From the sequence record OZ346175.1: DNA of 64,000 nt. One strand, written 5' to 3'. The notes under the pieces are model-generated. The model was not told the DNA's origin. It saw only the letters and a list, made by a program, of their open reading frames with translations, and made no database searches. Below are positions 3,930-58,172 of this stretch, piece after piece. The stretch comes from a phage. Numbering within the stretch: the stretch's first letter is position 1; each line of letters starts with the position of its first letter. Made by a program: the position numbers and the translations under genes.

Positions 3930-5276
3930 ATGAGTTCGAATATCTTCAGACTTGCTGATAGATTATTCAACCAACCTTTACTAGCCACTGAATCGTTAGC
4001 TCACTCAGCAGCAACTTATGTGAATAACAGATTGCTGGGTGATGTCCAAGCAGCAGTAAACTTTGATAAACCCAAAGGTGAAGCAAGAAGTCTTTTAAAA
4101 GTGAAAGATGACATTGCTATTATCCCTATTATGGGTGGTTTAACCCATCGTATGACATTCATTGATGCAATGTGTACAGGTGGATTAAGCTCTTATGAAG
4201 GTTTGCGTAGAGGCTTTGACGAAGCTTTAGCAGATGAGTCAATCAAGACTATTGTTCTGCACATCGATTCTGGTGGTGGTGAAGCTTCAGGTTGCTTTGA
4301 ATTAGCACGTCACATTATGGCTTCAAGAGGCCAAAAGAAAATTATTGCTTATGTAGATGAGTTCGCTTGTTCCGCTGCATACGCTCTTGCATCTTCTGCT
4401 GAAGAAATTATTGCATCACCAGATGCAGATGTTGGTTCTATCGGTGTAATCATGGTTCATCAGGAATTAACTAAGGCATTTGAAAAGAATGGCGTAACAA
4501 TTAACGTCATCAAAGCTGGTGAGTTTAAAGGTATGGGTTCACCATTCCAAGCACTCTCAGAAGAAAGCAAAGAAAGACTTCAAAAGAGAATTAATGATAC
4601 CTACGCAACCTTTACAGGTTTTGTAGCTGAATCTCGTAAACTCTCTGAAGAAGCTGTAAAGAATACTGAGGCGAATGTTTATTCTGCTCAGGAAGCTCTT
4701 GAACTTGGTTTAATTAACTCAATCATGTCTCAAGATGATTTCTTAAATTACTTACAAGGTTCTGAAGAGGCTCCTGTAAGTTTAAACGTTAACAATTCAG
4801 GTGAAGAAATGACTGAACAAGAAAAGCAAGAACTAGAAGCTTTGCGTCTTCAGGTTGCTCAAATGAAAGCTAAAGAACAGGAAGCTGCTTTGTCAGATTT
4901 GACTAATAAGATTTCTGCTTCTGCTGAAGCTTTTGGATTTGATGCAAAAGAAGCTGCAACGACTATTTTAGGTGCTGGTCTTGATAACCCTCTGAGCGTT
5001 CTGTTTATGAATGCTATGGAAGGTGCTAACCAGAAACTTAATGAAACTATCGCGTCCCATGCTTCTGCAATGGAAGAAAAAGAATCAGAAATTACCAAGC
5101 TGAAAGAAACTGCTGGTGCTGTTCTTGAACATTCCAACGCTATGGAAGAAGTGGGTAATGACGGCGAAGCTGATTTGGTTGAAGAAGAAAAAGAACCAGC
5201 TAAGAATGCTTCCGAAGACACCGCTGAACAACGCAAACTGGCTCTCCAGAATGCTCTAAAATCTCTTATCAAATAA
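3930..5276 (+). CDS. prohead protease (S49/ClpP-like) fused to scaffold-like C-terminal region
   Basis: S49-type motifs IVLHIDSGGGEASG and FACSAAYALASSA; acidic/coiled-coil C-terminal half; precedes capsid gene. Confidence 0.8.
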   Translation: MSSNIFRLADRLFNQPLLATESLAHSAATYVNNRLLGDVQAAVNFDKPKGEARSLLKVKDDIAIIPIMGGLTHRMTFIDAMCTGGLSSYEGLRRGFDEALADESIKTIVLHIDSGGGEASGCFELARHIMASRGQKKIIAYVDEFACSAAYALASSAEEIIASPDADVGSIGVIMVHQELTKAFEKNGVTINVIKAGEFKGMGSPFQALSEESKERLQKRINDTYATFTGFVAESRKLSEEAVKNTEANVYSAQEALELGLINSIMSQDDFLNYLQGSEEAPVSLNVNNSGEEMTEQEKQELEALRLQVAQMKAKEQEAALSDLTNKISASAEAFGFDAKEAATTILGAGLDNPLSVLFMNAMEGANQKLNETIASHASAMEEKESEITKLKETAGAVLEHSNAMEEVGNDGEADLVEEEKEPAKNASEDTAEQRKLALQNALKSLIK

Positions 5277-5287
5277 GGAACACAATA

Positions 5288-5665
5288 ATGGCATATCAAG
5301 GTTTTACTAAGTTAGGTAACAGAGAACCTCTGAATGATATCATTCTTTGGGAACAGATTACCCCAACAGGCCACTCTCGTAAAGAGTACACTCCGGTTGC
5401 TTCAACAGAATACCGTGTAGGTGAAGTTCTGAAAGCAGATGGTACTAAGGTACAAGCTGGAGAAGAAGCCCAAGCAGACTCTGTATGTATCGTTAATTTC
5501 TACGCAGACCTGCAACTGTCTTATCATGGTCAGTTGAAAGTGGTAGGTATCCACCGTGATGCAGAACTAAAAGACCTGCTGACTCTTGAATCAAGCGTTA
5601 ATGCTGCTGAAGTCAAGAAAGCTCTGGCTGCTAAAGGTATTGATTTCGTACCAACTGGCCTGTAA
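5288..5665 (+). CDS. hypothetical protein, possible head decoration protein
   Basis: 125 aa ORF between protease/scaffold and major capsid gene. Confidence 0.45.
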   Translation: MAYQGFTKLGNREPLNDIILWEQITPTGHSRKEYTPVASTEYRVGEVLKADGTKVQAGEEAQADSVCIVNFYADLQLSYHGQLKVVGIHRDAELKDLLTLESSVNAAEVKKALAAKGIDFVPTGL

Positions 5666-29975: not shown

Positions 29976-30503
29976 TCAACTTAGTTTTGCAAACTCTCCG
30001 TGGAGTTTAATAGCAGCTTCACAGTAAGCTTTATGGGCTTCTTCAGGTGTGTCATGGTAACCTAAAAACATCTTCTTACCTTTATAACTTATCTGTGCGA
30101 CCCACTTACCAGACTTCTTCTTCAGGCTTACACCCTTATAGCCTGATTTATTGGTGGATAGTTTGCTTTTATTCCAAGCACTTTGGTAGTCATCTGCTTC
30201 TCTTAAGTTTACAATCCTGTTATCAAGGGAGTCTCCATTAATATGGTCAATAACACCTTTCGGCAACCTACCATACATGTACAGCCATGCGAGTCTGTGT
30301 GCTTTATGTGCTTTCTTGTCAAAATAGATAGTAATCTGCTTATGACCAGTTGAGTCAATCTGGATGCTCCCCGCTACCTGTCCTGCGTACTGACTATTAA
30401 AAACTTTAACAGCCTTTGAGTCGCCCTCTCTACGAAGCCAAGTAAAGACCCCTGTTTCGGGGTCATAGTGTAGTAGTTCCTTTAAACGTTCTTTTGTAAT
30501 CAT
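29976..30503 (-). CDS. HNH homing endonuclease with AP2-like DNA-binding domain
   Basis: HNH segment VIDHINGDSLDNRIVNLREA; AP2-like SGYKGVSLKKKSGKWVAQISYKGKKMFLGYHDTPEEAHKAY; start set at ATG 30503 by conservation with paralog at 40374. Confidence 0.8.
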   Translation of the reverse strand: MITKERLKELLHYDPETGVFTWLRREGDSKAVKVFNSQYAGQVAGSIQIDSTGHKQITIYFDKKAHKAHRLAWLYMYGRLPKGVIDHINGDSLDNRIVNLREADDYQSAWNKSKLSTNKSGYKGVSLKKKSGKWVAQISYKGKKMFLGYHDTPEEAHKAYCEAAIKLHGEFAKLS

Positions 30504-30513
30504 TTTGTCACCA

Positions 30514-31070: not shown

Positions 31071-31338
31071 CATCTGGTCAATACACTCGCAAGGTGTACC
31101 AGTTCTCTTATGAACTTCTCCGCATTTCTACGGAGTGTCGGACTATATCACGTAGTAGTAATACTACCGTTGCACTTGGGAATGGTCATTGGCTTACCAC
31201 CCTACTCTACTCAGTTCATACGTTAAGTATGCTTTTCGATAGTCTCTGAACGTTCCTCTTAAGAGGCTTCGCTGCTGATTACCATATCTTTACAGACTTA
31301 GGCTTCCAGCAATTCACAACGTTTTACATGCGCCACTG
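31071..31338 (-). ncRNA. group I self-splicing intron (ORF-less) within DNA polymerase gene
   Basis: On - strand RNA: 5' exon ends ...AUGCGU pairing with IGS GCGCAU (U.G at splice site); core elements P-like UUGCUGGAAG, Q AAUCAGCAGCG, R GUUCAGAGACUA, S GAUAUAGUCC; terminal G; splicing restores ...AKNGIYA-LLFGAGDEK. Confidence 0.75.
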
Positions 31339-33481
31339 ACGCATAAATGCCATTTTTGGCTTTCTTACGACCTTTTGTAATCTCGTGGAGAAGTTCCTCA
31401 TCCTGTGTCTCCCTACAACGAACAATATCTTCTTCCTTGTTCAGACCAAAGTAAATACTGTTCAGTGTATGCGCATCAGTCCCTGTGTAGACTTCATAGA
31501 GGTCGTTCTCAGCATCATAACGAAGATACTTGTCAGTTTCTGGATTAAGGTGCTTATCAAGATGTTTGCAATAATATCTCCCATCTTCTTGCTTGGTAAA
31601 TTCTACTGACTCTTTACCTTCAGTTACTGCTTTAGTGAACTCTTTATCACCCATAAAGTTACACAGTAAAACAAGCTGTGCAGAGTTCTGGTCAACAGAA
31701 ACAATGTTAGTCCCCTCTTCACAAATCCACACTGCCCTCATAGGTGCTCCATAGACAGCAGCACCAGACGGTACGTTTACAATACCATATTGTGTCATAC
31801 GTCCAGTTGAAGTACCAAACACCATTGCACCAGCACTAAGGCGACCATCAGGACGAATCTGGTTCAACCAACCTTTTTCATCATCCTTTGAGTTCTCAAT
31901 AGTTCTGCGTCGGTGCATCAAAGTATAGTACTTAGCAATCTTCTGTCCAAGCTCACCTTCAATCGTATCATAAGATGATTCAGTAAGTTTTGGTGAAGTA
32001 CGGATTAAGCAAGGCTCAAGCAAATCTGTGTACTTCTTCACAGACCAGTTATGCTCAATGTACTGTACACCTTCATGTTCAACATAACTCAAACCACACC
32101 GCTCAACCATTTCCTGCCACTTAGGATGTTTTGTAATCATCTTTTTATTGTCTTTGAAACGACAAACTTTGACAGGGCGACCATCTGAATCTTTCTTGTA
32201 GTTCCAGTCATCTGGAATCCAACCAACTGATTTCAAGTAGTCTTTAACAACTGCTACCTGAGTCATATGAGAAACTTCAAACTCAATTGGTGTATATGGT
32301 GCATCAATCAAACCTGTGTAGCGACTTGACTCAAGTTCAAAGTGATTGACAACGTGACTGTTATAGTACTTCACAGTCTTGACTGTTTTTACTGGTTTCC
32401 AGTCTTTGCATTTTTTGCCAATCTTTGCATTCAACTCGTTGCAGATTGCACGAGCATCCTTCATCGCTACAAAACCCTCTTTGTACTCTTCACCAGTTAC
32501 AGAGTTGGTTGGTGTATAGCAATTTCTCTTTTCAATGTTAAAAATCTTTGTAGTTGGCTTACCAAATGGCTTGATTTCATATGTCTGCATCTCACCATTA
32601 CGTACCTGCTGACGATACTTTGTCTTAGGGTACTTGGTAATTCTTTTCAGTCCATCTGCATGACCAAATGCTTCAACATACTCATTCCAAGCTTTTGCAA
32701 ACTCTTCTCCAGTGACTTTACCTTTGGTCTTAATAGTTGGAGGTAGATGTGGTTCAACCTCTGAAGCAAGCTCATTAGTCAACTTGTCAAGCTCCTTTAC
32801 ATGGAACTCCATAAGCTCTTTATCAGCTTTCCAACCATTGATAGCTTGTTGACTCATCCAGAAAGATGTTTCTTTAGCTCGCATGTAAGTTTCATAAGTG
32901 TCTATGCCACACTTCTTAAGCTTGAGATACTCGTTATCAAGTGCCCGTTTAGTTTTGGCGTTAATACGGATATCTTCTACAACACGAGTGAAGATTTCTG
33001 CATTCCACACACCCCAATGCTCAATCTCTGGCTTACGAACACCAACACGAGCACCCCATGCAGCCAAGCCATGAGCACCTTTATAACCCTTTGGAGTTGG
33101 TCTATCCATCCACTGAACACGAGACTGGATAAGAGAATCCTGAAAGAAATTACTCCACGGCTTACACTTTGGATTATCAAAGTTCCATAAATCAGGTGCA
33201 ATGTGATTAAAAACCCACCAGTCATAACCGAGACCGTTATGGATGCAAAGACGTTTTGCCTTTAACGCAAATTCAACACCTTCACGTAAGCCACCCTTAA
33301 TGTACTTGGTATACTTGTGACCGAGGATAGGTTCATCCGTAAAGACCCATACAGGTGGCTCTTCATCGTCAGATTTATAGTCTGCGAAAGCCATTACGTG
33401 CACTTTAGTGAACTCAAGGAGTAAACCATCAGTTTCTGTATCACCAACTAAATGTAAGTTTTTAAAATCTACGTTTTCCAT
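31339..33481 (-). CDS. DNA polymerase (family A) exon 1, 3'-5' exonuclease and N-terminal polymerase domains
   Basis: Exo I motif LVGDTETDGL; ends in motif B start GRKKAKNGIYA; start set at ATG 33481 with GAGGGAG SD (track start 33511). Confidence 0.85.
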
Positions 33482-39349: not shown

Positions 39350-40396
39350 ATGGAGAAGTACACATTAACAAAGCTTCCCGATTCAGTTACACATGTCTTT
39401 ATTGACTCTGACAGTATTGCCTATAAAGGTGCTTGTGTAGTTGAGAAAGCAAAATATAAATATGTCAATAAACTCACAGCAGAAGAATCTGATTCGTTTG
39501 ATAATGCGAAAGATGCTGCAAGATGGTTAGCAGACCAGAGAATCCTTGTGGAAGAACTTGGCCTGACATTTGATGAAGATGAATGGGAAAGACAGACTTG
39601 GAAAGAAGCTAAGAGTGAAAAAGAAGCTATCATGGCTACTCAACAGGTTCTTCAGGAATGGCTTAAGGTTGTTGGTAAAGAGAGAACTTGGGTAGGCTAT
39701 TTAACAGAGAAAGGTGTGCATAAGCATAAAGACATTAAAGGTCTTGAGCACCAATATCAAGGTAACCGTAAAGATGCTGTCACACCAACACACTTAGTTG
39801 CTTGTCGTGAGTATCTTCTGTCAAGACCAGAGTTCAAACTAATTCTTGATGGATTTGAAGCCGACTCTATCGTTATTGCTAAAGCTGAAAAGATGGGTAA
39901 AAAGGCTGCCTTAATGAGTATTGATAAAGACCTTCGCCAAGCTGAAGGGACTTACTGCATTGATATGACCTATGAAAAGTCACCTTTGATTTTCATTGCT
40001 GATAACAACGTTGGTGAAATTTGGGATTGCCCAATAAAATCGACACCAAAAGCTAAGAAGACAGTTGGGGTAGGTTTTAAATTTCTTTGTTACCAAGCTG
40101 TGGCTGGTGATAATGCTGATAATTATTTTGGTTTAAAGGGCGTTGGTAAGGCTACTGTAATGAAAGCTCTTGAAGGTAAAACCACCTACAAAGAGTGTCT
40201 TGATGCAATTTATGAGCTTTATGCTAAGAAAGAGTCATACACTTATGTCTCGTGGGATGGTCAAACAATTACCAGAACACCTTTAGAGTTAATGCAGCAA
40301 CACTTTTTCTTAGCTTATCAGGAAAGAAACAAGAAAGACGATTTTACTTTTGATAAGTATGGGTGGACACCAAATGTTAACTCAACAAACTCTTAA
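39350..40396 (+). CDS. 5'-3' exonuclease / flap endonuclease
   Basis: PIN-like N-terminus (VFIDSDSIAYKGA), H3TH-like GLKGVGKATVMKAL. Confidence 0.7.
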   Translation: MEKYTLTKLPDSVTHVFIDSDSIAYKGACVVEKAKYKYVNKLTAEESDSFDNAKDAARWLADQRILVEELGLTFDEDEWERQTWKEAKSEKEAIMATQQVLQEWLKVVGKERTWVGYLTEKGVHKHKDIKGLEHQYQGNRKDAVTPTHLVACREYLLSRPEFKLILDGFEADSIVIAKAEKMGKKAALMSIDKDLRQAEGTYCIDMTYEKSPLIFIADNNVGEIWDCPIKSTPKAKKTVGVGFKFLCYQAVAGDNADNYFGLKGVGKATVMKALEGKTTYKECLDAIYELYAKKESYTYVSWDGQTITRTPLELMQQHFFLAYQERNKKDDFTFDKYGWTPNVNSTNS

Positions 40397-40865
40397 AGAG
40401 TACCTACATTATGACCCCGAAACAGGGGTCTTTACTTGGATTAAGAAATCTGCTAGACACACAAAAATTGGCTCTGTTGCAGGTACAAACTTAAGAGGGT
40501 ATACCAGAATTTATTTGTTTGGTAAGGGCTATTATGCACATACCCTAGCCGTTCTGTATATGGATGGATACCTACCTGAGTGTGTTGACCATAAAAATCA
40601 TGTAACACTAGACAATCGCTGGGTAAATCTTAGGGCATGTACGTTATCAGAGAACCAATGTAATAGGTTGCTCAATAAGAACAATAAATCAGGTGTTAAA
40701 GGTGTGTACTACAAAAAACAGTATGGTAAGTGGTCTACACAGATAACTTTTAAGAAGAGGGTCTACTTCTTCGGCAACTATGACACTATTGATGAAGCAG
40801 CAGAGGTTGTAAATAGGGAACGTCAACGTTTACACAAAGAGTTTGCTAATAAAGGTGATGAATGA
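40374..40865 (+). CDS. HNH homing endonuclease with AP2-like domain (paralog of 29976-30503)
   Basis: Shared N-terminus with paralog (LKEYLHYDPETGVFTW), HNH segment VDHKNHVTLDNRWVNLR, AP2-like SGVKGVYYKKQYGKWSTQI. Confidence 0.8.
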   Translation: MLTQQTLKEYLHYDPETGVFTWIKKSARHTKIGSVAGTNLRGYTRIYLFGKGYYAHTLAVLYMDGYLPECVDHKNHVTLDNRWVNLRACTLSENQCNRLLNKNNKSGVKGVYYKKQYGKWSTQITFKKRVYFFGNYDTIDEAAEVVNRERQRLHKEFANKGDE

Positions 40866-49647: not shown

Positions 49648-50039
49648 TTAAGTTGAACAAAAAACAGTTAGAGTGGATTAAAGATTACGCCTCAGAGTGT
49701 GGCTCTTGCGAAAAGAGTCACGTAAGATATTCAATATTCCATACAACCTTCACATTGTATATCAGTGACAACGTTCTAAGTGATTCCGTAGAAGACGGTG
49801 TAGCATTAACTAATGAGTTACTTGATAAACTAGCTGTAGTCACTGGAACTTGGTCTGAAGAAGACGGTCATGAATTATCTGACAATGTTGTCTTCTACAC
49901 CATTGAAAACATTATGAACCCAGAGTATATTGCACTCATGACTTGTGCACAAGACTGTGTGCTCTTACAAGACTTCATTAAAGAGCACTGTGAAGAGTTT
50001 ATTACTAAATATGTTCCTTGTCAGGTGGTGTTTGAATGA
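49644..50039 (+). CDS. hypothetical protein
   Basis: 131 aa ORF. Confidence 0.5.
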   Translation: MIKLNKKQLEWIKDYASECGSCEKSHVRYSIFHTTFTLYISDNVLSDSVEDGVALTNELLDKLAVVTGTWSEEDGHELSDNVVFYTIENIMNPEYIALMTCAQDCVLLQDFIKEHCEEFITKYVPCQVVFE

Positions 50040-50335
50040 GTAAAACAATTCGAAGAAAAGGTTTAAAGAACGTTCACGGACTCTATGAGTGGAGAAATGA
50101 GGTACGTAACAGAGAAAATGCTTCAGATGTCTACTTCCATTCTGATATGATGTCCAGAAAAGGTGGCTCTTATGACTTTACAAGTCAGCCTTGTAGAGAG
50201 ATTAAGAAGGTTACTAAACGTCTTACAAGAACACAAATCAGGCAGCTTTCTAAGACATCCTTCTTAGATGAGGACTTTGACATTGACAGCAAGTCTCCAA
50301 AGAAAGCTGCTCAGAACACTTATATGTATTGGTGA
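50036..50335 (+). CDS. hypothetical protein
   Basis: 99 aa ORF. Confidence 0.5.
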   Translation: MSKTIRRKGLKNVHGLYEWRNEVRNRENASDVYFHSDMMSRKGGSYDFTSQPCREIKKVTKRLTRTQIRQLSKTSFLDEDFDIDSKSPKKAAQNTYMYW

Positions 50336-50344
50336 GGTAACTAG

Positions 50345-50830
50345 ATGAATTACATGGAGATTAGGCCATTTGACACAGCTAATGGTGAAGGGGTTCGTGT
50401 AAGCCTCTTTGTAGCTGGTTGTAAGCATCACTGTGAAGGCTGCTTCAACAGGGAGTCTTGGAAGTTTAATGCTGGTAAAGAGTTTACTTATGCAAACCTC
50501 TACGGCATCATTAAGTTAATGGATGATGAGGCCATAAGTGGATTATCAATACTCGGTGGAGAACCTCTGGATGATAGAAATATTCGAGAGGTCACCAACA
50601 TTTGTAAACGTATTAAAACTGTTTACCCAGAAAAGTCTATCTGGCTCTGGACAGGTTTTCAGTTACACGAAAAAATTCACTTAGATGTGATGAAATATGT
50701 TGACGTAGTGATTGATGGTAAGTATGATTCATCTAAACCAACAGTTAAACCTTATCGTGGTTCTGATAACCAAACCCTCTGGAGAAAAGAGTATGGGTGG
50801 CAAGGTGATTGTCAATGGCGAGCAGAATGA
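50345..50830 (+). CDS. nrdG: anaerobic ribonucleotide reductase activating protein (radical SAM)
   Basis: CKHHCEGC (CX3CX2C) radical-SAM cluster motif; 161 aa; near nrdD. Confidence 0.8.
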   Translation: MNYMEIRPFDTANGEGVRVSLFVAGCKHHCEGCFNRESWKFNAGKEFTYANLYGIIKLMDDEAISGLSILGGEPLDDRNIREVTNICKRIKTVYPEKSIWLWTGFQLHEKIHLDVMKYVDVVIDGKYDSSKPTVKPYRGSDNQTLWRKEYGWQGDCQWRAE

Positions 50831-51068
50831 TTATTCTGGCAAGTGGACTTACGACATCAACAAGTTAGATGCTTGGATGATTTATACAAGAGAAAAATTT
50901 GGCGAACGTTCATTATGTGCTCTTGCAACAATGGTGAAGAACGTTACCTTTGTCATTCATGAATCAGATAAGTTTGGAGACTTCTACAGGATTCAAAACA
51001 TTAGAGAAGGTATAACTCCAATCGGTATCACTGAAGAAGAACTCCATAAGTTCTGTATTAAACTTTAA
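50793..51068 (+). CDS. hypothetical protein
   Basis: Start set at ATG 50793 with GGAGAA SD (track start 50712 overlaps nrdG). Confidence 0.45.
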   Translation: MGGKVIVNGEQNDYSGKWTYDINKLDAWMIYTREKFGERSLCALATMVKNVTFVIHESDKFGDFYRIQNIREGITPIGITEEELHKFCIKL

Positions 51069-51083
51069 TGAGAGAGACTAAAA

Positions 51084-51350
51084 ATGGGAATTTTAGGTAA
51101 TATGAAAGCTGGCTTCTTGAAGGCACTGGCAAAAGCAGCAGCAATCATTTCTATGACTGGAAAGCAGGTTGGTGTAGATGCTTCAGCAATTGCACAGGTT
51201 CTTGCAAGCCAAATTGAACAGCAGCCTTACATCCACGTTGGACGTGGCAAAGGTGGTAAGAAACAAGCACATCGACCAACTGGTGCAGCAGCAATTAAAC
51301 GTGCAGCTAAAAAAGCTCGTAACCGTAAACGTAATAAGAAGGCTAAATAA
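51084..51350 (+). CDS. hypothetical protein with basic C-terminal tail
   Basis: 88 aa; C-terminus KRAAKKARNRKRNKKAK. Confidence 0.5.
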   Translation: MGILGNMKAGFLKALAKAAAIISMTGKQVGVDASAIAQVLASQIEQQPYIHVGRGKGGKKQAHRPTGAAAIKRAAKKARNRKRNKKAK

Positions 51351-51352
51351 TC

Positions 51353-51673
51353 ATGAGCAAAGTTTATAACACTCGTAAATTACAGATTTTCGTACTGTGC
51401 CAGTTTATGGCTAAAGAGTATAACTACTACTACTGTGGTACAGGGTTCATCAGCGATGATGACGGTTCATACCTACCATTTAAAGAAGCTGTGAAGCTCT
51501 TTAATGAAGAGAAAAACTCTAAGAAAGATATTGAAAAGGTTAAGCTAACCTACAGCAAGAAAGATAAGAAGATTATCTGCCTAGATAACTTTGTAAAAGT
51601 TACTGGAGAAGCAAAAGAGTTTATGGATGAGAGTGAGATTTCATTCACAAGCATCTTGAAAGTAGCTCAGTAA
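51353..51673 (+). CDS. hypothetical protein
   Basis: 106 aa ORF. Confidence 0.5.
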   Translation: MSKVYNTRKLQIFVLCQFMAKEYNYYYCGTGFISDDDGSYLPFKEAVKLFNEEKNSKKDIEKVKLTYSKKDKKIICLDNFVKVTGEAKEFMDESEISFTSILKVAQ

Positions 51674-51685
51674 ACAGATACTATA

Positions 51686-51710
51686 AGGGAACTGTAAAGG
51701 TTCCCTTTTT
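51686..51710 (+). terminator. rho-independent terminator
   Basis: AGGGAAC-TGTAAA-GGTTCCCT hairpin plus TTTTT. Confidence 0.65.
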
Positions 51711-51724
51711 ATTTTGGAGATAAT

Positions 51725-52240
51725 ATGTACCTGTCAAATCTGAAACGTTCTGCTGCAATGTCAGTGTTAAGACTCAGTTTTGAGGAACGTCAAGAGTTCA
51801 TTGACTCCCACCAATACGACCCTTCTAACTCCAATCACATGATTCTCTGGAATCGTGACAGTACTCGTGAAAGAGCACTATTCCGTTACTACCCACATTA
51901 CACCATAGACAAATTGTATGAATGTTTTGTTGTGAAGAACACCATTACAGTACTCAATAAACTTTGCAGATACACAGGTAGTCAATCCTTCACATTAGGC
52001 CACCACAAACCCGTTACAAAGGGTGGTGAGCATCACTGTGCAAACTGGTTTATCCAGACTAAACTTGATAACCAGAAGCAAGGGGATAACCTCCTAAGCA
52101 CACCTAAGATGACCTATGAAGAGCAAGAGAAATATATCAAAAATAATATGCCAGATGTGCTTGACAACAACTATACAGATTTGGCAATATCTCTCCTGTT
52201 GAAGTTCGAGACAGTTTATAGGGCAACTTACAATGGCTAA
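51725..52240 (+). CDS. HNH-like nuclease domain protein (putative)
   Basis: LGHHKPVTKGGEHHCANWFIQTKLDNQ resembles HNH core. Confidence 0.45.
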   Translation: MYLSNLKRSAAMSVLRLSFEERQEFIDSHQYDPSNSNHMILWNRDSTRERALFRYYPHYTIDKLYECFVVKNTITVLNKLCRYTGSQSFTLGHHKPVTKGGEHHCANWFIQTKLDNQKQGDNLLSTPKMTYEEQEKYIKNNMPDVLDNNYTDLAISLLLKFETVYRATYNG

Positions 52241-52511
52241 AGAGAAGTGGGAGATTTTACCATTAGTCAGTGAAGGCGGTAATGGTTGTGAAATGTACAT
52301 GATACGTGGGCATGTTCCAGAACCAATTGCACTTGAGATGGTAAACAACTTTACAGATGGCTCTTACAAAGACTTAGGGGAGCCAAATATAAAGCAGCAA
52401 TGGGTAAAGCCTGTACCAGACAGCACAGGTAACTGTAGTGTACTTTATCACGTTGTAGACCCTGCAAAATGCAAATCTGCAATGGCAGTAACAAACGTAA
52501 CTTTTGATTGA
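52233..52511 (+). CDS. hypothetical protein
   Basis: 92 aa ORF translationally coupled to downstream PRS-like gene. Confidence 0.5.
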   Translation: MAKEKWEILPLVSEGGNGCEMYMIRGHVPEPIALEMVNNFTDGSYKDLGEPNIKQQWVKPVPDSTGNCSVLYHVVDPAKCKSAMAVTNVTFD

Positions 52512-53404
52512 GAGAGAAAACTATGAAAACTGTTATTGAAGCCGTCGTCACCGCTCAAGAGAAATTCTTCCACACAGAAAAATTTAATATCATTCAATTC
52601 CCATCTGGAGAGATTGGTGGAAACTTCTCTGAAGATTTTGTTAAGTTTACTGAGCGTAATGCTGGTAAGATTGATAATGTTATAATTACTGTACAGGGAT
52701 ATGACAAAGATACACTGTTTGCATTAGCTTTGGCTAAGGATGCCGTTGACAGTCTTGTTCCCCAGAAATCAGCGATGAAAACCGTTGTTTTCGGGTTCTT
52801 ACCAAATGCTCGATATGACCGCCACATGTTCAAAGGTGATGCAGCAGCACTGAAAGTCTTTGCCAACCTAGTTAATGCAATGGGTTTTGATGCAGTATGT
52901 GCTCTTGACCCTCACAGTAATGTTGCAGAAAACTTATTTAAGTGCTTTCAAAGCATGAAGCAAAAAGATGTGGCAGTACACTTTGCAAGTGACCCACGCA
53001 TTGATTTCTTGGTAGCCCCAGATGCAGGTGCAGCTAAGAAGACTGAAGATACCGCTAAAGAGGTGGATAAACCGTATATCACAATGTCTAAGGTGCGCAA
53101 TCTTAAGACTGGAGAAATCACTGGTATGCGAATCCTTGACGATGTTGATTTGACCGATAAAACTGTCATGATTCTTGATGATATCTGTGATGGTGGTCGA
53201 ACCTTCGTAGAGGCAGCTAAACACCTACGTGAAGCAGGTGCAAAACGTGTGGAACTCTATGTAACTCATGGTATTTTCTCTAAAGGTGTTGAAAACTTGC
53301 TTGACAACGGTATTGACCATATCTACACTACAAACACTTTAGGTGAAGCTAAAGACCGTGGCTTAACACATTACGCCCAAGTTACTGTAGCAACCATTGA
53401 TTGA
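52508..53404 (+). CDS. PRPP synthetase-family protein (ribose-phosphate pyrophosphokinase-like; candidate ADPR-PP synthetase Adps)
   Basis: Phosphoribosyltransferase-type motif VMILDDICDGGRT; 298 aa; adjacent to NAMPT-family gene. Confidence 0.8.
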   Translation: MREKTMKTVIEAVVTAQEKFFHTEKFNIIQFPSGEIGGNFSEDFVKFTERNAGKIDNVIITVQGYDKDTLFALALAKDAVDSLVPQKSAMKTVVFGFLPNARYDRHMFKGDAAALKVFANLVNAMGFDAVCALDPHSNVAENLFKCFQSMKQKDVAVHFASDPRIDFLVAPDAGAAKKTEDTAKEVDKPYITMSKVRNLKTGEITGMRILDDVDLTDKTVMILDDICDGGRTFVEAAKHLREAGAKRVELYVTHGIFSKGVENLLDNGIDHIYTTNTLGEAKDRGLTHYAQVTVATID

Positions 53405-53413
53405 AACTTTATA

Positions 53414-53434
53414 GGGGCTTGAAAGCCCCATTTT
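53414..53434 (+). terminator. weak terminator/attenuator hairpin
   Basis: GGGGCT-TGAA-AGCCCC hairpin followed by ATTTT. Confidence 0.45.
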
Positions 53435-53449
53435 GAGAGAGATTAAAAG

Positions 53450-55231
53450 ATGACTAAATCGCTTTACGCAGTACCAGCAGGTTTAAACGCAGATGCTTAC
53501 AAATCTGGTCATGTTTACCAGTACCCTAGTGCAACAGAATACTTGATGTTCAACCTGACACCACGTAGTGACAAATGGTTTAACAGCCCCTTAGCAATTG
53601 ATGGTGTAGTAGCTTTTGGTATTCAACGTTTCGTTAAAGATTACCTGATAGACCACTGGAACGCCACTTTCTTTGAACGTGATAAAAAAGAAGCAGTTGA
53701 CGAAATCTTAGAAGTCATGAATGGTGTTCTGGGTAAAGATGCTATTGGTCGAGAGCATTGGGAAGCACTTCACGATTTAGGCTATCTACCAGTTGAAGTA
53801 TACGCTGTAGAAGAAGGTACAGTTGTTCCTATGCGTGTTCCAATGATTGTCTTCCAGAACACTGTTTCAGGTTTCCATTGGGTAGCAGGTTATCTGGAAG
53901 ATGCTTTCTCTGCTGAGATTTGGAAGACTTGCACCATTGCAACTATTGCATTGCACTACAAACGTATCTGTAAGAAGTGGGCTGACCTTACTTGCGACAA
54001 TGACTTACATTTACCTTATCAGTGCCATGACTTTGCTATGCGTGGTATGTCCGGCTTTACCGATGACGCATTTAATGCTGTAGGTCACTTAACCAGCTTT
54101 AAAGGAACTGATAGCTTCCCTGCTGTATACACGGCTAAACGCATCTATGGACAGTCTTACCCAATTTCTGATATTGGTAGTTCTGTACCAGCCACTGAAC
54201 ACTCTGTAATGTGTGCAAACATTGCTTGGGAAGGTGGTAATGAATTGATTGAAGAGGAAAGACGCTTTAAAGGTGAGTTGCAAACCTTCCGTCGTTTCTT
54301 AACAGAAACTTACCCAACTGGTATTGCAAGTATTGTTTCAGATACTTATAACTTCTGGAGAACTGTGTCAGAAATCTTACCAGCACTTCGTAAAGAAATT
54401 ATGGAACGTGATGGTAAGCTGGTAATTCGCCCTGACTCTGGAGACCCTGTACATATTGTCACAGGCTATAAAGCAATCCACTTAGAGTGTGCTAAGAAGG
54501 CTTATTATGAGCACATAAGCAAGCTGGAAGCTAGTGACACAATGTTGAATGCTGTTCTGAACATGAAGCTTGAAAACATCAACTATGGTATTGCTGGATG
54601 GCTACTGTCAGAAGGCTACGAAATGGTTGTTGACAGAGAAGACTTTGAAGTTGCTGATACAGTGATGTTGAAAAATGCTTATATGGTTGGCTCTGCAAAC
54701 GTTGTAACACGTCCTGTAGCAGAGATTGATGGAGCTATTAAGACCCTGTACAACATCTTCGGAGGGACTATTAACTCTAAAGGGTTTAAGGTACTGGATG
54801 AGCACATCGGCCTTATCTATGGTGACTCTATCACGCTGGAACGTGCAAACGAAATCCTGAAGCGTCTGTATGAAATGGGTTTTGCAAGCTCTAACGTAGT
54901 GTTTGGTGTAGGCTCTTACACTTACCAGTACATGACTCGTGACACCTTTGCATTTGCTGTCAAAGCAACTCTTGCAAGCATTGGTGGTAAAGAGATTATG
55001 CTTGCAAAAGACCCTAAAACAGATAGTGGTGTTAAGAAATCTGCCTTTGGTGGTGTAGCACCTATGTGGGATGGTGATAAGCTGAAAGCTGTAGATGGCT
55101 ATGGATTCCAGAGTTTTGCAGATGTACTTGACCACCAAGCTTGTGCTTTACGTTTAGTCTTTAGCGACTCTGAGCAGTTCGGTTATACAACTCTTGGAGA
55201 TATTCGAAATAATATTGACAAGCAGCTTTAA
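53450..55231 (+). CDS. nicotinamide phosphoribosyltransferase-family protein (NAMPT-like; candidate Namat)
   Basis: N-terminal DAYKSGH (cf. NAMPT DSYKVTH); 593 aa. Confidence 0.8.
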   Translation: MTKSLYAVPAGLNADAYKSGHVYQYPSATEYLMFNLTPRSDKWFNSPLAIDGVVAFGIQRFVKDYLIDHWNATFFERDKKEAVDEILEVMNGVLGKDAIGREHWEALHDLGYLPVEVYAVEEGTVVPMRVPMIVFQNTVSGFHWVAGYLEDAFSAEIWKTCTIATIALHYKRICKKWADLTCDNDLHLPYQCHDFAMRGMSGFTDDAFNAVGHLTSFKGTDSFPAVYTAKRIYGQSYPISDIGSSVPATEHSVMCANIAWEGGNELIEEERRFKGELQTFRRFLTETYPTGIASIVSDTYNFWRTVSEILPALRKEIMERDGKLVIRPDSGDPVHIVTGYKAIHLECAKKAYYEHISKLEASDTMLNAVLNMKLENINYGIAGWLLSEGYEMVVDREDFEVADTVMLKNAYMVGSANVVTRPVAEIDGAIKTLYNIFGGTINSKGFKVLDEHIGLIYGDSITLERANEILKRLYEMGFASSNVVFGVGSYTYQYMTRDTFAFAVKATLASIGGKEIMLAKDPKTDSGVKKSAFGGVAPMWDGDKLKAVDGYGFQSFADVLDHQACALRLVFSDSEQFGYTTLGDIRNNIDKQL

Positions 55232-55245
55232 AAGTATATGATAAG

Positions 55246-55267
55246 AGGCTCCTACGGGAGCCTTTTT
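55246..55267 (+). terminator. rho-independent terminator
   Basis: AGGCTCC-TACG-GGAGCCT hairpin plus TTTTT. Confidence 0.7.
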
Positions 55268-55284
55268 AATTTCTGGAGAAGATT

Positions 55285-55620
55285 ATGAAAATCAAAGAAA
55301 TGAACATTAACGTTGTCCTAGAAGAACGTTGGGAGAACATTAAGAAACCTGAAGATGGTAAAAAGTTCCTTAACAAAATTTTAGTAGCAGCTAAAGAAGA
55401 ACTGACTGGCAAGATTGCAGCAGCAATCACAATAAAAATCTGTGTAAAAGGTCTTCCACAACATCACCAATTTGCACTTGACGAGTTTAAAGGAAGCTTC
55501 TACAATCCAAACAAACAGATGCTTGAAAGTAACTTTGCAGTGTCTACAAGTATCGTTCATGACAGAAGCTTTATCCTTTACAAGAATATGAGAGGTGAGT
55601 CATGCAAGCATATTGGATAG
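55285..55620 (+). CDS. hypothetical protein
   Basis: 111 aa ORF. Confidence 0.5.
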   Translation: MKIKEMNINVVLEERWENIKKPEDGKKFLNKILVAAKEELTGKIAAAITIKICVKGLPQHHQFALDEFKGSFYNPNKQMLESNFAVSTSIVHDRSFILYKNMRGESCKHIG

Positions 55621-55778
55621 AAATTTTACTGTCACTCGGTAGTGTAGCAGTCCTTGTTTATCTTCTTTGTAAGTACTTTGCAGAACACAAGAAGTGTGAC
55701 TACTGTAACGGAGAAGGGTATACAAGAGCAGGTTGTTGCCCTATGTGTGGTGGTTCTGGTAAAATGTTTAATAAGTAA
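55602..55778 (+). CDS. small membrane protein with DnaJ-type zinc-finger repeats (58 aa)
   Basis: SD GAGGTGA; hydrophobic N-terminus ILLSLGSVAVLVYLL then two CxxCxGxG motifs (CDYCNGEG, CPMCGGSG); below ORF-track cutoff. Confidence 0.45.
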   Translation: MQAYWIEILLSLGSVAVLVYLLCKYFAEHKKCDYCNGEGYTRAGCCPMCGGSGKMFNK

Positions 55779-55806
55779 TTTAACAGTAAACTAAGAGGAA
55801 AGTATT

Positions 55807-56553
55807 ATGCGCATGGTAAATGACCACGCAGAAGTGATTAAGAGTTCAACTTCTTTAGAGACGTCTCAAGCACAGATTACAATGACACCTGAGATGTTCA
55901 GCCTTTTGAGTTCTGGTGTATACACCTTTAAAGAAAGGGCAGTGATTCGTGAACTGTCATGTAACGCAGTAGATGCTCAGAAAGAAGCTGGAAAAGAGAA
56001 CATCCCATTCCATGTGCATTTACCTACTCGTTTTGAGCCTTACTTCGAAGTTCGTGATTTTGGAACTGGATTGACTCATGATAAAGTAATGAGTTTGTAT
56101 CTGAACTATGGGGCTTCTACGAAGAATGACTCCAATGATTACATTGGTGCAATGGGTATCGGCTCAAAATCCCCATTTGCAATTGCTCAGTCATTCACAG
56201 TATCTAGCTATGTTGATGGTGTTGTTAATAAGTACTCTGTTTACCTTGAGAATGGTATCCCTCAAGTAACTAAGCTTACTACCAACCCAACAAATGAACC
56301 CAATGGTTTAGCTGTACGTGTGGCAGTTGCTGACCATCGTATTTCAAAGTTCTTTGAAGAGGCTGGTCACGTATACTCATACTTTGCTGTAAAACCAGAA
56401 AGTAACATTGTATATGATGATGTATTAGCAGATATGAATGTCATTGCCCGTGAAGAGGGTGTTTATGATGCTATGATTCATAAGCAAAGCTGGCGTTCTA
56501 GTGGCAACAGGACAGAGTTTAATGTGGTGATGGGTAATATTGCCACCCAGTGA
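55807..56553 (+). CDS. rIIA: rIIA-like protein, N-terminal GHKL ATPase part
   Basis: Bergerat-fold motifs: N-box ELSCNAVDAQ, G1 VRDFGTGL, G2 GAMGIGSKSPF; 248 aa ending in TGA. Confidence 0.5.
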   Translation: MRMVNDHAEVIKSSTSLETSQAQITMTPEMFSLLSSGVYTFKERAVIRELSCNAVDAQKEAGKENIPFHVHLPTRFEPYFEVRDFGTGLTHDKVMSLYLNYGASTKNDSNDYIGAMGIGSKSPFAIAQSFTVSSYVDGVVNKYSVYLENGIPQVTKLTTNPTNEPNGLAVRVAVADHRISKFFEEAGHVYSYFAVKPESNIVYDDVLADMNVIAREEGVYDAMIHKQSWRSSGNRTEFNVVMGNIATQ

Positions 56554-58172
56554 ACATGGAAGCATTACTTGGTGATGATTTCTTCAAAGTCTTGCCAGAG
56601 TTTTTCCGTAGGAGCGTAGACCTTGTAAACATCTACATGCCTATTGGTTCAGTTGCTATTGCAGCTTCTCGTGAAGCATTGCAGATGAATGACACGACAA
56701 AAAATGTTATCATTGAGGCTACTAAAAAGATAACTGAAGCCATTACAAAGGATGTTATCAAGAAAGTTAATAGCCAACCTACACTCATGGATGCTGCACA
56801 GGCTTATGCTGAGTTACGTTTGAACTCACGAGAGATGTTTAATGCTGTGTGTCCAAAGCTAGAGTGGGGTGGCGTTAAGCTTGATTCTCTGGAAGAAGAA
56901 TTGCTAAACATTCGTCGTGGAATTATCTACGCAGAAGACGGCTCAGTCATTTACGAACGTGACGGTAAAGGTAATATTAAGGTTGATAGGAACGGGAACA
57001 ATATCCCTAAAGTAGATTATCTTTATGACCCAGTTGCTTATGTCAAGTTTAACTCTTTAGAGAGTAAGATTCGTGCAACAGCACTATCCTACACTCAAGA
57101 GGCGAGCATGTTCAACATCTTTGGTGCAATGCGCAAAAGCCAGATTGGACAGTTTTTGTTCGTGATTAATGACCGTCGAAATAAAAATGGCACTGAGAAG
57201 ACTGTTGGGCGTAACCAAATCTTGCGTGGTGCATGTCGAGACTATGCAAGTGAGTCTAGTCTGTTTCACAGATACAATGGTATTGTCTTTGTATTCTCGA
57301 CTGAAAAAGAGTTAGATGACTTAATCAATCTGCACAAACTTGATAAAAGCTTGCTAAAGATTGTGAAAATGTCTGATAAGGAACACCATTACCAGCGTAA
57401 AGAAGCTGTAAGAGGTGTTGTAAAACTCTGGAAAGCTGTTCCAGCAGAAGGTGTAGCCTCCTACAAAGAGGTGTCAGAGGACTTAGACACAATTGAAGAA
57501 CCTCAGCTTTACATTAAGGCAATTGGTGACACAGTTGATGGCGAATGTTTTTGCTCATCTCCAGAAGATGTAGCTAAGTCAGTTGCCAATGTCATTGAAA
57601 AGACAGTCTATGTTTTCCGAAAAGCAAATTGGAAAAAGATACCAGAAGACTGGATTGAAGTAGATGAGAAGCTCTTGAGCAACAGCTTAACTAATGTTCA
57701 CTGGATTAATCATAACAGGTATATGACACGTATCTATATGAATGGTGTCCTAGACCTGACAAGCAGTTGGATTATTGCCAGAAACTTTACGTTCAATAAC
57801 AGGAAGATTTCTCGTGGCTATTGCTATTCACGGGATACAAACAAAACTATCTTCCTAGAAGGTAATGAAGAGGCTGTAGAGGCAATGTTTGGTAAAATCC
57901 AGTATGTTGCTGCACCATTTGCATACACTTACACTATTAGTGTGTTGAAAACTTTGAAAGATTGTCTTGACAACGATACAAAGCTTTACAAGAAAATTAA
58001 GAAAGCTGGTGACCGTATGGTTATTAAGGTGACAAACTACCTTTCAAAAAGAAAACAAGAAAACTTCTTGCTTTCCCATTTAGATTGGAATAAAGTGTCA
58101 CCCATCGAAGTGAGTAAGTTCTTAGGTTTTGATGTGAAGTGTGTTCCAGAAGGAACTACAGTTTACGATTAA
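56550..58172 (+). CDS. rIIA-like protein, C-terminal part (separate ORF in -1 frame)
   Basis: 540 aa ORF starting GTG 56550 / ATG 56556, immediately after stop of GHKL ORF. Confidence 0.45.
   Translation: MNMEALLGDDFFKVLPEFFRRSVDLVNIYMPIGSVAIAASREALQMNDTTKNVIIEATKKITEAITKDVIKKVNSQPTLMDAAQAYAELRLNSREMFNAVCPKLEWGGVKLDSLEEELLNIRRGIIYAEDGSVIYERDGKGNIKVDRNGNNIPKVDYLYDPVAYVKFNSLESKIRATALSYTQEASMFNIFGAMRKSQIGQFLFVINDRRNKNGTEKTVGRNQILRGACRDYASESSLFHRYNGIVFVFSTEKELDDLINLHKLDKSLLKIVKMSDKEHHYQRKEAVRGVVKLWKAVPAEGVASYKEVSEDLDTIEEPQLYIKAIGDTVDGECFCSSPEDVAKSVANVIEKTVYVFRKANWKKIPEDWIEVDEKLLSNSLTNVHWINHNRYMTRIYMNGVLDLTSSWIIARNFTFNNRKISRGYCYSRDTNKTIFLEGNEEAVEAMFGKIQYVAAPFAYTYTISVLKTLKDCLDNDTKLYKKIKKAGDRMVIKVTNYLSKRKQENFLLSHLDWNKVSPIEVSKFLGFDVKCVPEGTTVYD

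Follow-up and report, generated by a model that had tools for sequence, protein, structure and literature searches.

NAD+ reconstitution by phages

The NARP1 pathway was defined by deletion and metabolomics of two genes of the E. coli phage Bas63 (Escherichia phage JohannRWettstein), bas63_0079 and bas63_0080, which encode Adps and Namat (Osterman et al., bioRxiv 10.1101/2024.02.11.579819). It is an important recent discovery, in which a metabolite destroyed by immunity is rebuilt by viruses. In this pathway, NAD+ is split into ADP-ribose and nicotinamide by host defences, of which SIR2-HerA, type I Thoeris, DSR1/2 and SEFIR are examples. Adps then moves the beta-gamma pyrophosphate of ATP to the distal ribose of ADP-ribose, yielding ADPR-PP, from which nicotinamide displaces the pyrophosphate on Namat to give NAD+ directly, without an NMN intermediate or an NMN adenylyltransferase (NMNAT).

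Deletion of bas63_0079/0080 sensitised Bas63 to SIR2-HerA, and ADPR-PP was seen solely in wild-type infection of defence-carrying cells; the same work includes NAD+ measurements (bioRxiv 10.1101/2024.02.11.579819). Homologous operons counter Thoeris I, DSR1/2 and SEFIR. The in vitro chemistry has been published for homologues from SpbetaL1 and ICP1; SpbetaL1 proteins took the place of the protein of Bas63, which "did not purify well". Sequence signatures are available for both enzymes, namely the clamp helix and clamp loop of Namat, including the K42-W43 arrangement of Bas63 (PMC12774641), and the signatures of Adps (PMC13586617). A phage-specific Adps clade with 97% Namat adjacency has been described, and Bas63 Adps is one of the query sequences behind the Prs/Adps tree.

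A NARP1 operon in a relative of Bas63

The window analysed here, 64,000 nucleotides of record OZ346175.1, belongs to the genome of a Felixounavirus (Felix O1-like) phage. Its DNA is 96.9–99.1% identical to Felixounavirus genomes including Bas63, with 99% identity to phages LNA1 and Andreotti and 97% to Bas63/JohannRWettstein. The initial annotation had described two co-directional genes encoding a Prs-family and a Nampt-family protein, and both are indeed present on the plus strand, with the peptides VMILDDICDGGRT and DAYKSGH in their translations. The first, adps (52523–53404), encodes a Prs-like putative ADP-ribose pyrophosphate synthetase of 293 aa, and the second, namat (53450–55231), a Nampt-like putative nicotinamide ADP-ribose transferase of 593 aa. 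The two genes are adjacent and 45 nt apart, which corresponds to the architecture of NARP1. Pfam and PHROGs agree on the family of both ORFs: Adps contains Pribosyltran/Pribosyl_synth domains and matches ribose-phosphate pyrophosphokinase (E 2e-99), and Namat contains NAPRTase and NAMPT_N domains and matches nicotinamide phosphoribosyltransferase (E 3e-202).

The start of adps was originally set at 52508. The ORF itself stands, but the TTG at this position is merely a mechanical ORF start and overlaps the stop codon of the upstream ORF. The ATG at 52523 is preceded by GAGAGAGAAAAC and is annotated as the start in both Bas63 and Andreotti, and it is probably the real one.

Adps is identical to bas63_0079 at 291 of 293 positions and Namat to bas63_0080 at 585 of 593, and all ten substitutions fall outside catalytic, specificity and other functional residues. 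We are thus almost certain that the gene pair constitutes a Felixounavirus NARP1 operon for NAD+ reconstitution. Owing to this near-identity to the pair that first defined NARP1, the initial proposal of an Adps/Namat module proves correct but not new; only its novelty was overstated, since the locus re-identifies the founding example of NARP1 in a sibling phage. The activities predicted for the two enzymes (ADPR and ATP to ADPR-PP; ADPR-PP and nicotinamide to NAD+) are those published for the Bas63 genes in vivo, by detection of ADPR-PP, and for the SpbetaL1 and ICP1 homologues in vitro. The module would be expected to counter NAD+-depleting defences, as published for Bas63 and the homologous operons.

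Transcription unit and intergenic hairpin

Two further plus-strand ORFs precede adps. A 171-aa ORF (51725–52240; homologue of bas63_0077, phrog_3500, with a weak HNH-like match) is the first gene of a bracketed four-gene block, and it overlaps by 8 nt a 92-aa ORF (52233–52511; homologue of bas63_0078, phrog_4726), which ends 11 nt upstream of the adps ATG. The block is delimited on the plus strand by two composite elements that probably mark the boundaries of the unit. In each, a promoter-like site directly adjoins a terminator-like hairpin that carries a T-run: TTGAAA-17-TACTAT in the upstream element (51656–51707), and TTGACA-16-TATGAT (11/12), with a hairpin of 10 bp, in the downstream element (55215–55266). 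This arrangement suggests that adps and namat are cotranscribed with the two upstream ORFs as one unit. Beyond the block, at about position 56545, rIIA carries a possible frameshift.

The 171-aa ORF (gp77) is syntenic in all related Ounavirinae loci. As general NARP1 partners, the two upstream ORFs, gp77 and gp78, were rejected; their synteny is confined to Ounavirinae, and the ICP1 stretch holding its adps contains no match. The nine neighbouring ORFs were also searched for accessory Macro/Adpp and RyR/RyDEP genes. Apart from a single weak HNH-like match, they gave only DUFs and unknown PHROG families, with no Macro domain in Pfam at E ≤ 1 or in PHROGs at E ≤ 0.001. Since neither a Macro-domain (Adpp) nor a RyR-domain gene lies nearby, the locus represents a plain two-gene NARP1.

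The hairpin with a short U-tract that had been noticed between the two genes is real. It comprises GGGGCU-UGAA-AGCCCC (53414–53429, plus strand), followed by an A and then UUUU at 53431–53434, downstream of which a GAGAGAGA ribosome-binding tract precedes namat. It is predicted to fold with a free energy of -12.6 kcal/mol (z = -2.8), a stability matched by 3 of 200 shuffled sequences. The hairpin is found in 22 of 28 related loci; the stem GGGGCT/AGCCCC is unchanged in 20 of the 28 and weakened in L019 and L020. A permissive Rfam scan of positions 50000–58000 gave only chance-level matches to known RNA families.

It is possible, if doubtful, that this element works as an intrinsic terminator or attenuator, so that Adps is expressed more strongly than Namat. 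The GC-rich 6-bp stem with a T-run after it would fit such a role, as would the conservation of the stem among relatives in which the loop varies. However, the T-run comprises just 4 T, too short for the hairpin to pass a terminator consensus scan, and the pathway needs both enzymes. Furthermore, an HNH homing endonuclease gene occupies the place of the hairpin in 6 of the 28 relatives, where adps and namat are intact, which means that the hairpin is dispensable. We infer that it acts in RNA stability or attenuation and is not a full terminator.

Adps and Namat signatures

The initial annotation had called for a comparison of Adps with housekeeping Prs and of Namat with Nampt, and both comparisons favour the NARP1 enzymes. 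In NCBIfam, Adps passes only the cut-off of the broad TIGR01251 subfamily. Its scores against Prs equivalog and PRK-subfamily models range from 49 to 114 bits, compared with cut-offs of 296–536, and even the best equivalog, NF002095, reaches 114 bits where 296 would be required. ICP1 Adps residues F18, R87, H121, D161 and K185 correspond to conserved F16, R97, H131, D167 and K190, and ICP1 D212–D216 and F221 to conserved D219–D223 and F228, including the donor-site motif DDICD. Comparison with ICP1 K185, R87, H121, D161, D212/D213 and C215–S220 thereby recovers the catalytic lysine, the acceptor residues and the remodelled PP loop. Differences are seen at two sites: F92, an aromatic ADPR contact of ICP1, aligns to M102, which is adjoined by F103, and PP-loop positions 218–220 read GRT, compared with AAS in ICP1, where these contacts were assigned to backbone amides (PMC13586617). 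Judged from its sequence, the Prs-like protein belongs to the Adps clade and not to housekeeping Prs, in line with the published Adps signatures.

By both sequence and fold, Namat finds its best PDB matches in the crystal structures of SpbetaL1 Namat (9w5w/9w5x; E 1e-128; TM-score of 0.95 on the target for an AF2 model with a mean pLDDT of 91.9). Its selectivity-clamp loop, S40-D41-K42-W43 (53567–53578, plus strand), has a Lys in third and an aromatic residue in fourth position, as described for Bas63 Namat. K42-W43 aligns to SpbetaL1 R40 and agrees with the adenine-stacking pattern of an Arg at position 3, or a Lys/Tyr followed by a stacking residue. The selectivity-clamp helix GSYTYQYMTRD (residues 488–498; 54911–54943, plus strand) fits the published consensus GS-X-phi-X-phi-X-phi-TRD, with aromatic X. 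The Nampt-like catalytic core is complete, with F195, R198, D221, H251, R327 and D329 (reference residues in SpbetaL1: F189, R192, D215, the catalytic His, R306 and D308), and these residues are invariant in 25 homologues.

Alternative routes to NAD+

An alternative reading is conventional salvage, in which a true PRPP synthetase and a true Nampt would make NMN and host NadR or PncC would finish NAD+. The protein names in Pfam, PHROGs, NCBIfam and GenBank imply this route, and Namat homologues can still convert PRPP to NMN in vitro, as does that of SpbetaL1 (PMC12774641); the Namat described here may share this side activity. Nevertheless, deletion of both pncC and nadR from the host did not prevent Bas63 from overcoming SIR2-HerA (bioRxiv 10.1101/2024.02.11.579819), and the persistence of the effect in this host rules out the NMN route for Bas63, in whose infected cells ADPR-PP was detected. 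In addition, a Prs-type assay of the SpbetaL1 enzyme yielded no product, and Namat preferred ADPR-PP to PRPP. The adenine-clamp signature of Namat and the Adps scores far under the Prs equivalog cut-offs also argue against salvage at this locus, so that this reading, which the published work on Bas63 has already refuted in large part, is very improbable.

The initial annotation had also stated that no NMNAT is visible in the window, and had named such a gene elsewhere in the genome as evidence against NARP1. At the level of motifs rather than of profile searches of every ORF, six-frame scans of the window and of all 87.1 kb of the Bas63 genome revealed no (H/T)xGH motif or Nudix box, and searches of both for an NMNAT/NARP2 or NadR/NARP3 partner with HxGH, ISSTxxR and Nudix patterns gave nothing credible; nor does the annotation of the complete Bas63 genome list an NMNAT. 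A NARP2-type pathway, with Nampt and an NMNAT as in Vibrio phage KVP40, is hence scarcely conceivable: about 24 kb of the genome falls outside the window and could encode the second enzyme, but this part consists mostly of tRNAs and small ORFs, the complete Bas63 genome shows neither such a motif nor an annotated gene of this kind, and the Nampt-like gene has a Prs-like partner, the defining trait of the Namat clade. The preferred reading is that of a NARP1 operon.

A lineage-specific domain in Namat

A further feature of the locus is an inserted domain of Namat. This lineage-specific, small alpha/beta domain of about 85 residues (approximately 340–426; 54467–54727, plus strand) lies between RPDSGDPV and GAIKTLYNIFGG and is confidently folded in the predicted structure. 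Searches for structural and sequence relatives detected none outside Felix O1-like Namats, and the insert is the one feature of the locus that we did not see discussed in the published NARP1 studies examined. Its position is an insertion hot spot, at which other lineages carry unrelated inserts that add about 20 to 80 residues. We consider it unlikely that the domain is more than passive decoration and adds a function lacking in the crystallised SpbetaL1 enzyme. If it does, candidate roles would be docking of Adps to channel labile ADPR-PP, regulation of activity, or a shield against a host counter-measure.

Comparison with known systems

The pair shares its protein superfamilies with NARP2 (NadV and NatV of KVP40) and with housekeeping Prs/Nampt. 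At the motif level, it lacks the NMNAT partner of NARP2; its Namat carries the Namat signature in the clamp helix, where Nampt has its own sequence, and its Adps, unlike housekeeping Prs, falls below the equivalog cut-offs. With NARP1-AP of Vibrio phage Gary (Adps-Adpp-Namat; bioRxiv 10.64898/2026.01.28.702374) it shares the Adps and Namat core, whereas the Macro-domain phosphatase of that system is absent from the operon and its neighbourhood. The product of aRES defence is ADPR-1''-phosphate (bioRxiv 10.64898/2026.01.28.702374) and, by the published logic, a phage without Adpp, such as this one, should stay sensitive to aRES. A plain NARP1 of this type would be predicted to confer resistance to SIR2, TIR and SEFIR NADases, but not to aRES.

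Folds and catalytic residues are shared with SpbetaL1 Namat (9w5w/9w5x) and ICP1 Adps (UniProt F1D1Q1; NrsA/NrsB), as are the adenine-clamp signature, the DDICD donor loop and the catalytic lysine. Nonetheless, Adps is just 32% identical to its ICP1 counterpart, and the Namat model 37–39% identical to the SpbetaL1 chains in Foldseek. Namat has K42-W43 in the clamp loop instead of a stacking Arg, and it contains, beside the ~85-residue insert that Bas63-type Namats have and SpbetaL1 Namat lacks, another one of some 15 residues (approximately 258–272).

Bas63 carries an additional 345-nt ORF (bas63_0081) downstream of namat, which has no counterpart in the window. Both phages belong to one genus, and their NARP1 loci agree in gene order, gene lengths, the hairpin between the genes and the genes on either side; the proteins are 99% identical, differing by two (Adps) and eight (Namat) conservative substitutions. 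As the published founding example in a sibling phage, the locus adds one more member to NARP1 but nothing new to its biology. It is of practical use for annotation, where the database labels ribose-phosphate pyrophosphokinase and nicotinamide phosphoribosyltransferase mislead.

Gene pair and its phage relatives

Both co-directional genes of the initial annotation, encoding PRPP-synthetase-like and NAMPT-like proteins, were recovered on the plus strand, with the quoted peptides present in their translations. The first, adps (ADP-ribose pyrophosphate synthetase), matches Pfam Pribosyltran/Pribosyl_synth and the PHROGs ribose-phosphate pyrophosphokinase family (E 2e-99); the second, namat (nicotinamide ADP-ribose transferase; 53450-55231), matches Pfam NAPRTase and NAMPT_N and the PHROGs nicotinamide phosphoribosyltransferase family (E 3e-202). 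The first reading frame (52508/52523-53404) is real, but the start assigned to it at 52508 is a TTG that is only the first possible one and shares bases with the preceding ORF's stop codon. In the closest annotated relatives, the start is placed at the ATG at 52523, which has GAGAGAGAAAAC ahead of it and yields a product of 293 residues. Both genes share a purine-rich tract, (T)GAGAGAGA, located 6-12 nt 5' of each ATG (52508-52522 and 53435-53449).

Megablast comparison of 52000-56000 retrieved 259 phage genome records, nearly all Felix O1-like (Felixounavirus), and the matching Felixounavirus phages infect Escherichia, Salmonella, Shigella, and Citrobacter. DNA identity over this interval is 99.1% with LNA1, 98.9% with Andreotti, and 96.9% with JohannRWettstein (Bas63). 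The window and Bas63 share the order nrdD, nrdG, small ORFs, bas63_0077, 0078, 0079, and 0080, small ORFs, rIIA, and rIIB. Adps is identical to bas63_0079 at 291/293 positions and Namat to bas63_0080 at 585/593, and none of the ten substitutions falls on a functional residue. Together with the retained clamp and catalytic residues, this identity supports the proposed NARP1-type module, in which Adps and Namat rebuild NAD+.

Signatures of Adps and Namat

Adps shares 32% aligned identity with ICP1 Adps, whose structures are known (PMC13586617). It retains the catalytic lysine K190 and the acceptor residues F16, R97, H131, D167, D219, and D220, and its donor loop opens with DDICD, as in the ICP1 enzyme. 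One aromatic contact of the ICP1 enzyme, F92, corresponds to M102, with F103 adjoining. Among NCBIfam models, the broad TIGR01251 subfamily cut-off is the only one that Adps reaches; it scores far below every Prs equivalog cut-off.

The "selectivity clamp" was defined with the structure of SpbetaL1 Namat (PMC12774641). Residues 488-498 of the window's Namat (GSYTYQYMTRD; nt 54911-54943) fit the clamp-helix consensus GS-X-phi-X-phi-X-phi-TRD, where X is aromatic, and the clamp loop, S40-D41-K42-W43, has the same "Lys then stacking residue" arrangement as Bas63 Namat in the structure paper. The Nampt-like core retains F195, R198, D221, H251, R327, and D329, which are invariant among 25 diverse homologues. 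The AlphaFold2 model (mean pLDDT 91.9) best matches the Namat crystal structures 9w5x/9w5w (target TM-score 0.95), with Haemophilus NadV and human NAMPT ranking lower.

Other NAD+ pathways

Three related pathways were considered. NARP1-AP, which adds the Macro-domain phosphatase Adpp, was rejected, as none of the nine neighbouring ORFs carries a Macro or RyR domain, and the pathway is therefore the plain two-gene one. The defence product of aRES is ADPR-1''-phosphate, and by published logic plain NARP1 is predicted not to rescue the phage from this system. The absence of an NMN adenylyltransferase (NMNAT) from the window, already proposed, was borne out: neither an NMNAT (H/T)xGH motif nor a Nudix box turned up when the window and the entire 87.1-kb Bas63 genome were scanned in all six frames, and no NMNAT or Nudix gene is annotated in Bas63. 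On this motif-level and annotation evidence, neither NARP2 (Nampt plus NMNAT) nor NARP3 (NadR/PnuC; PMC13464706) applies.

Probable transcription unit and spacer

A strong plus-strand hairpin with a T-run lies upstream (51685-51707) and another downstream (55243-55266) of a block of four genes: a 171-aa ORF, a 92-aa ORF, adps, and namat. Each directly abuts a sigma-70-like promoter match (0 nt; 9/12 upstream, 11/12 downstream), and these were the only two plus-strand hairpins to do so in a whole-window scan; a third also scores 9/12, with its -10 box 5 nt upstream. Each composite (51656-51707 and 55215-55266) combines a sigma-70-like promoter, terminator-like hairpin, T-run, and ribosome-binding site, and presumably resembles the promoter/stem-loop cassettes of T4-type phages. 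The 171-aa and 92-aa ORFs are syntenic throughout Ounavirinae and have no counterparts in the ICP1 stretch holding its adps; on this sequence comparison, we treat them as probable lineage neighbours rather than pathway components.

The hairpin noted between the two genes is genuine (-12.6 kcal/mol, z = -2.8 against shuffles). Within the 45-nt spacer, GGGGCT-TGAA-AGCCCC (53414-53429) is followed by ATTTT and then by the other GAGAGAGA tract, which precedes the namat ATG; the terminator consensus requires a longer T-run than this. The hairpin occurs in 22 of 28 related viral contigs, with an unchanged stem in 20 of these and a variable loop. In the other six (L009, L010, L014, L016, L018, and L021), the spacer is taken up by a gene for a 163-aa HNH_3 + AP2 homing endonuclease (4891-5382 in those contigs), inserted precisely between the two genes; the hairpin is lost, and the GAGAGAGA tract before namat is kept. 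The hairpin, though conserved, is thus dispensable, suggesting a role in RNA stability or mild attenuation at most. In other relatives, the site just 3' of namat also varies: LinBro and ekra carry an HNH gene there, and Bas63 has an additional ORF of 345 nt.

Other features of the window

Downstream, loss of a single base near 56545 (GCC-ACCC versus GCCTACCC) breaks rIIA (55807-58172) into ORFs of 248 and 540 aa. The gene is intact, at 788 aa, in every one of the 26 relatives that matched here, among them LNA1 with its 99% identity; the split is either a genuine frameshift mutant or a sequencing error. A group I intron on the minus strand (31118-31401; Rfam RF00028, 64.2 bits, E 6e-14) is flanked by 737-aa and 184-aa ORFs, which appear to be the two halves of the DNA polymerase gene; the Bas63 polymerase is a single uninterrupted 909-aa CDS. 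Regions 30082-30513 and 40364-40753, on opposite strands, share 72-79-nt segments with 72-76% complementarity, among them a hairpin, GACCCCGAAACAGGGGTC, that is the same in both. These regions probably represent small paralogous genes, and the Bas63 counterpart of the one at ~30 kb is a putative homing endonuclease.

Comparison with published NARP1 systems

NARP1 was discovered as Bas63 genes 79-80 (Osterman et al., bioRxiv 10.1101/2024.02.11.579819). On SIR2-HerA cells, Bas63 lacking these genes plates ~20-fold less and NAD+ depletion is deeper; the effect persists in a host lacking both pncC and nadR, so the route does not pass through NMN, and ADPR-pyrophosphate (m/z 720.010) appears only when wild-type phage infects defence-carrying cells (bioRxiv 10.1101/2024.02.11.579819). 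Poor purification of the Bas63 protein meant that the chemistry had to be demonstrated with SpbetaL1 homologues: Adps converts ADPR and ATP to ADPR-PP and gives no product in a Prs-type assay, and Namat joins ADPR-PP, preferred over PRPP, to nicotinamide to form NAD+. The pathway is effective against type I Thoeris, DSR1, DSR2, SIR2-HerA, and SEFIR and occurs in 4.3% of phage genomes, with Namat neighbouring 97% of Adps-clade genes.

Unlike SpbetaL1 Namat, ICP1 Namat, and ~496-aa bacterial homologues, the window's Namat contains an insert of ~85 residues (~340-426; nt 54467-54727), flanked by RPDSGDPV and GAIKTLYNIFGG. It is common to Ounavirinae-type Namats down to ~46% identity, and at this position other lineages carry unrelated inserts that add ~20 to 80 residues. 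Modelled in the full protein or alone, it is predicted with high confidence to form a small alpha/beta domain. It has no Pfam match and no detectable structural or sequence relatives outside Ounavirinae-type Namats; among 1.84 billion representative proteins, a profile search found it only in Namat-length proteins or a fragment. PMC12774641 aligns and models Bas63 Namat, and searching its text by term turned up no reference to the insertion. That Bas63 NARP1 functions in vivo shows the insert to be compatible with activity. The locus represents, in a sibling phage, the founding NARP1 operon that has already been published, and what remains new is only the orphan insert domain in Namat.
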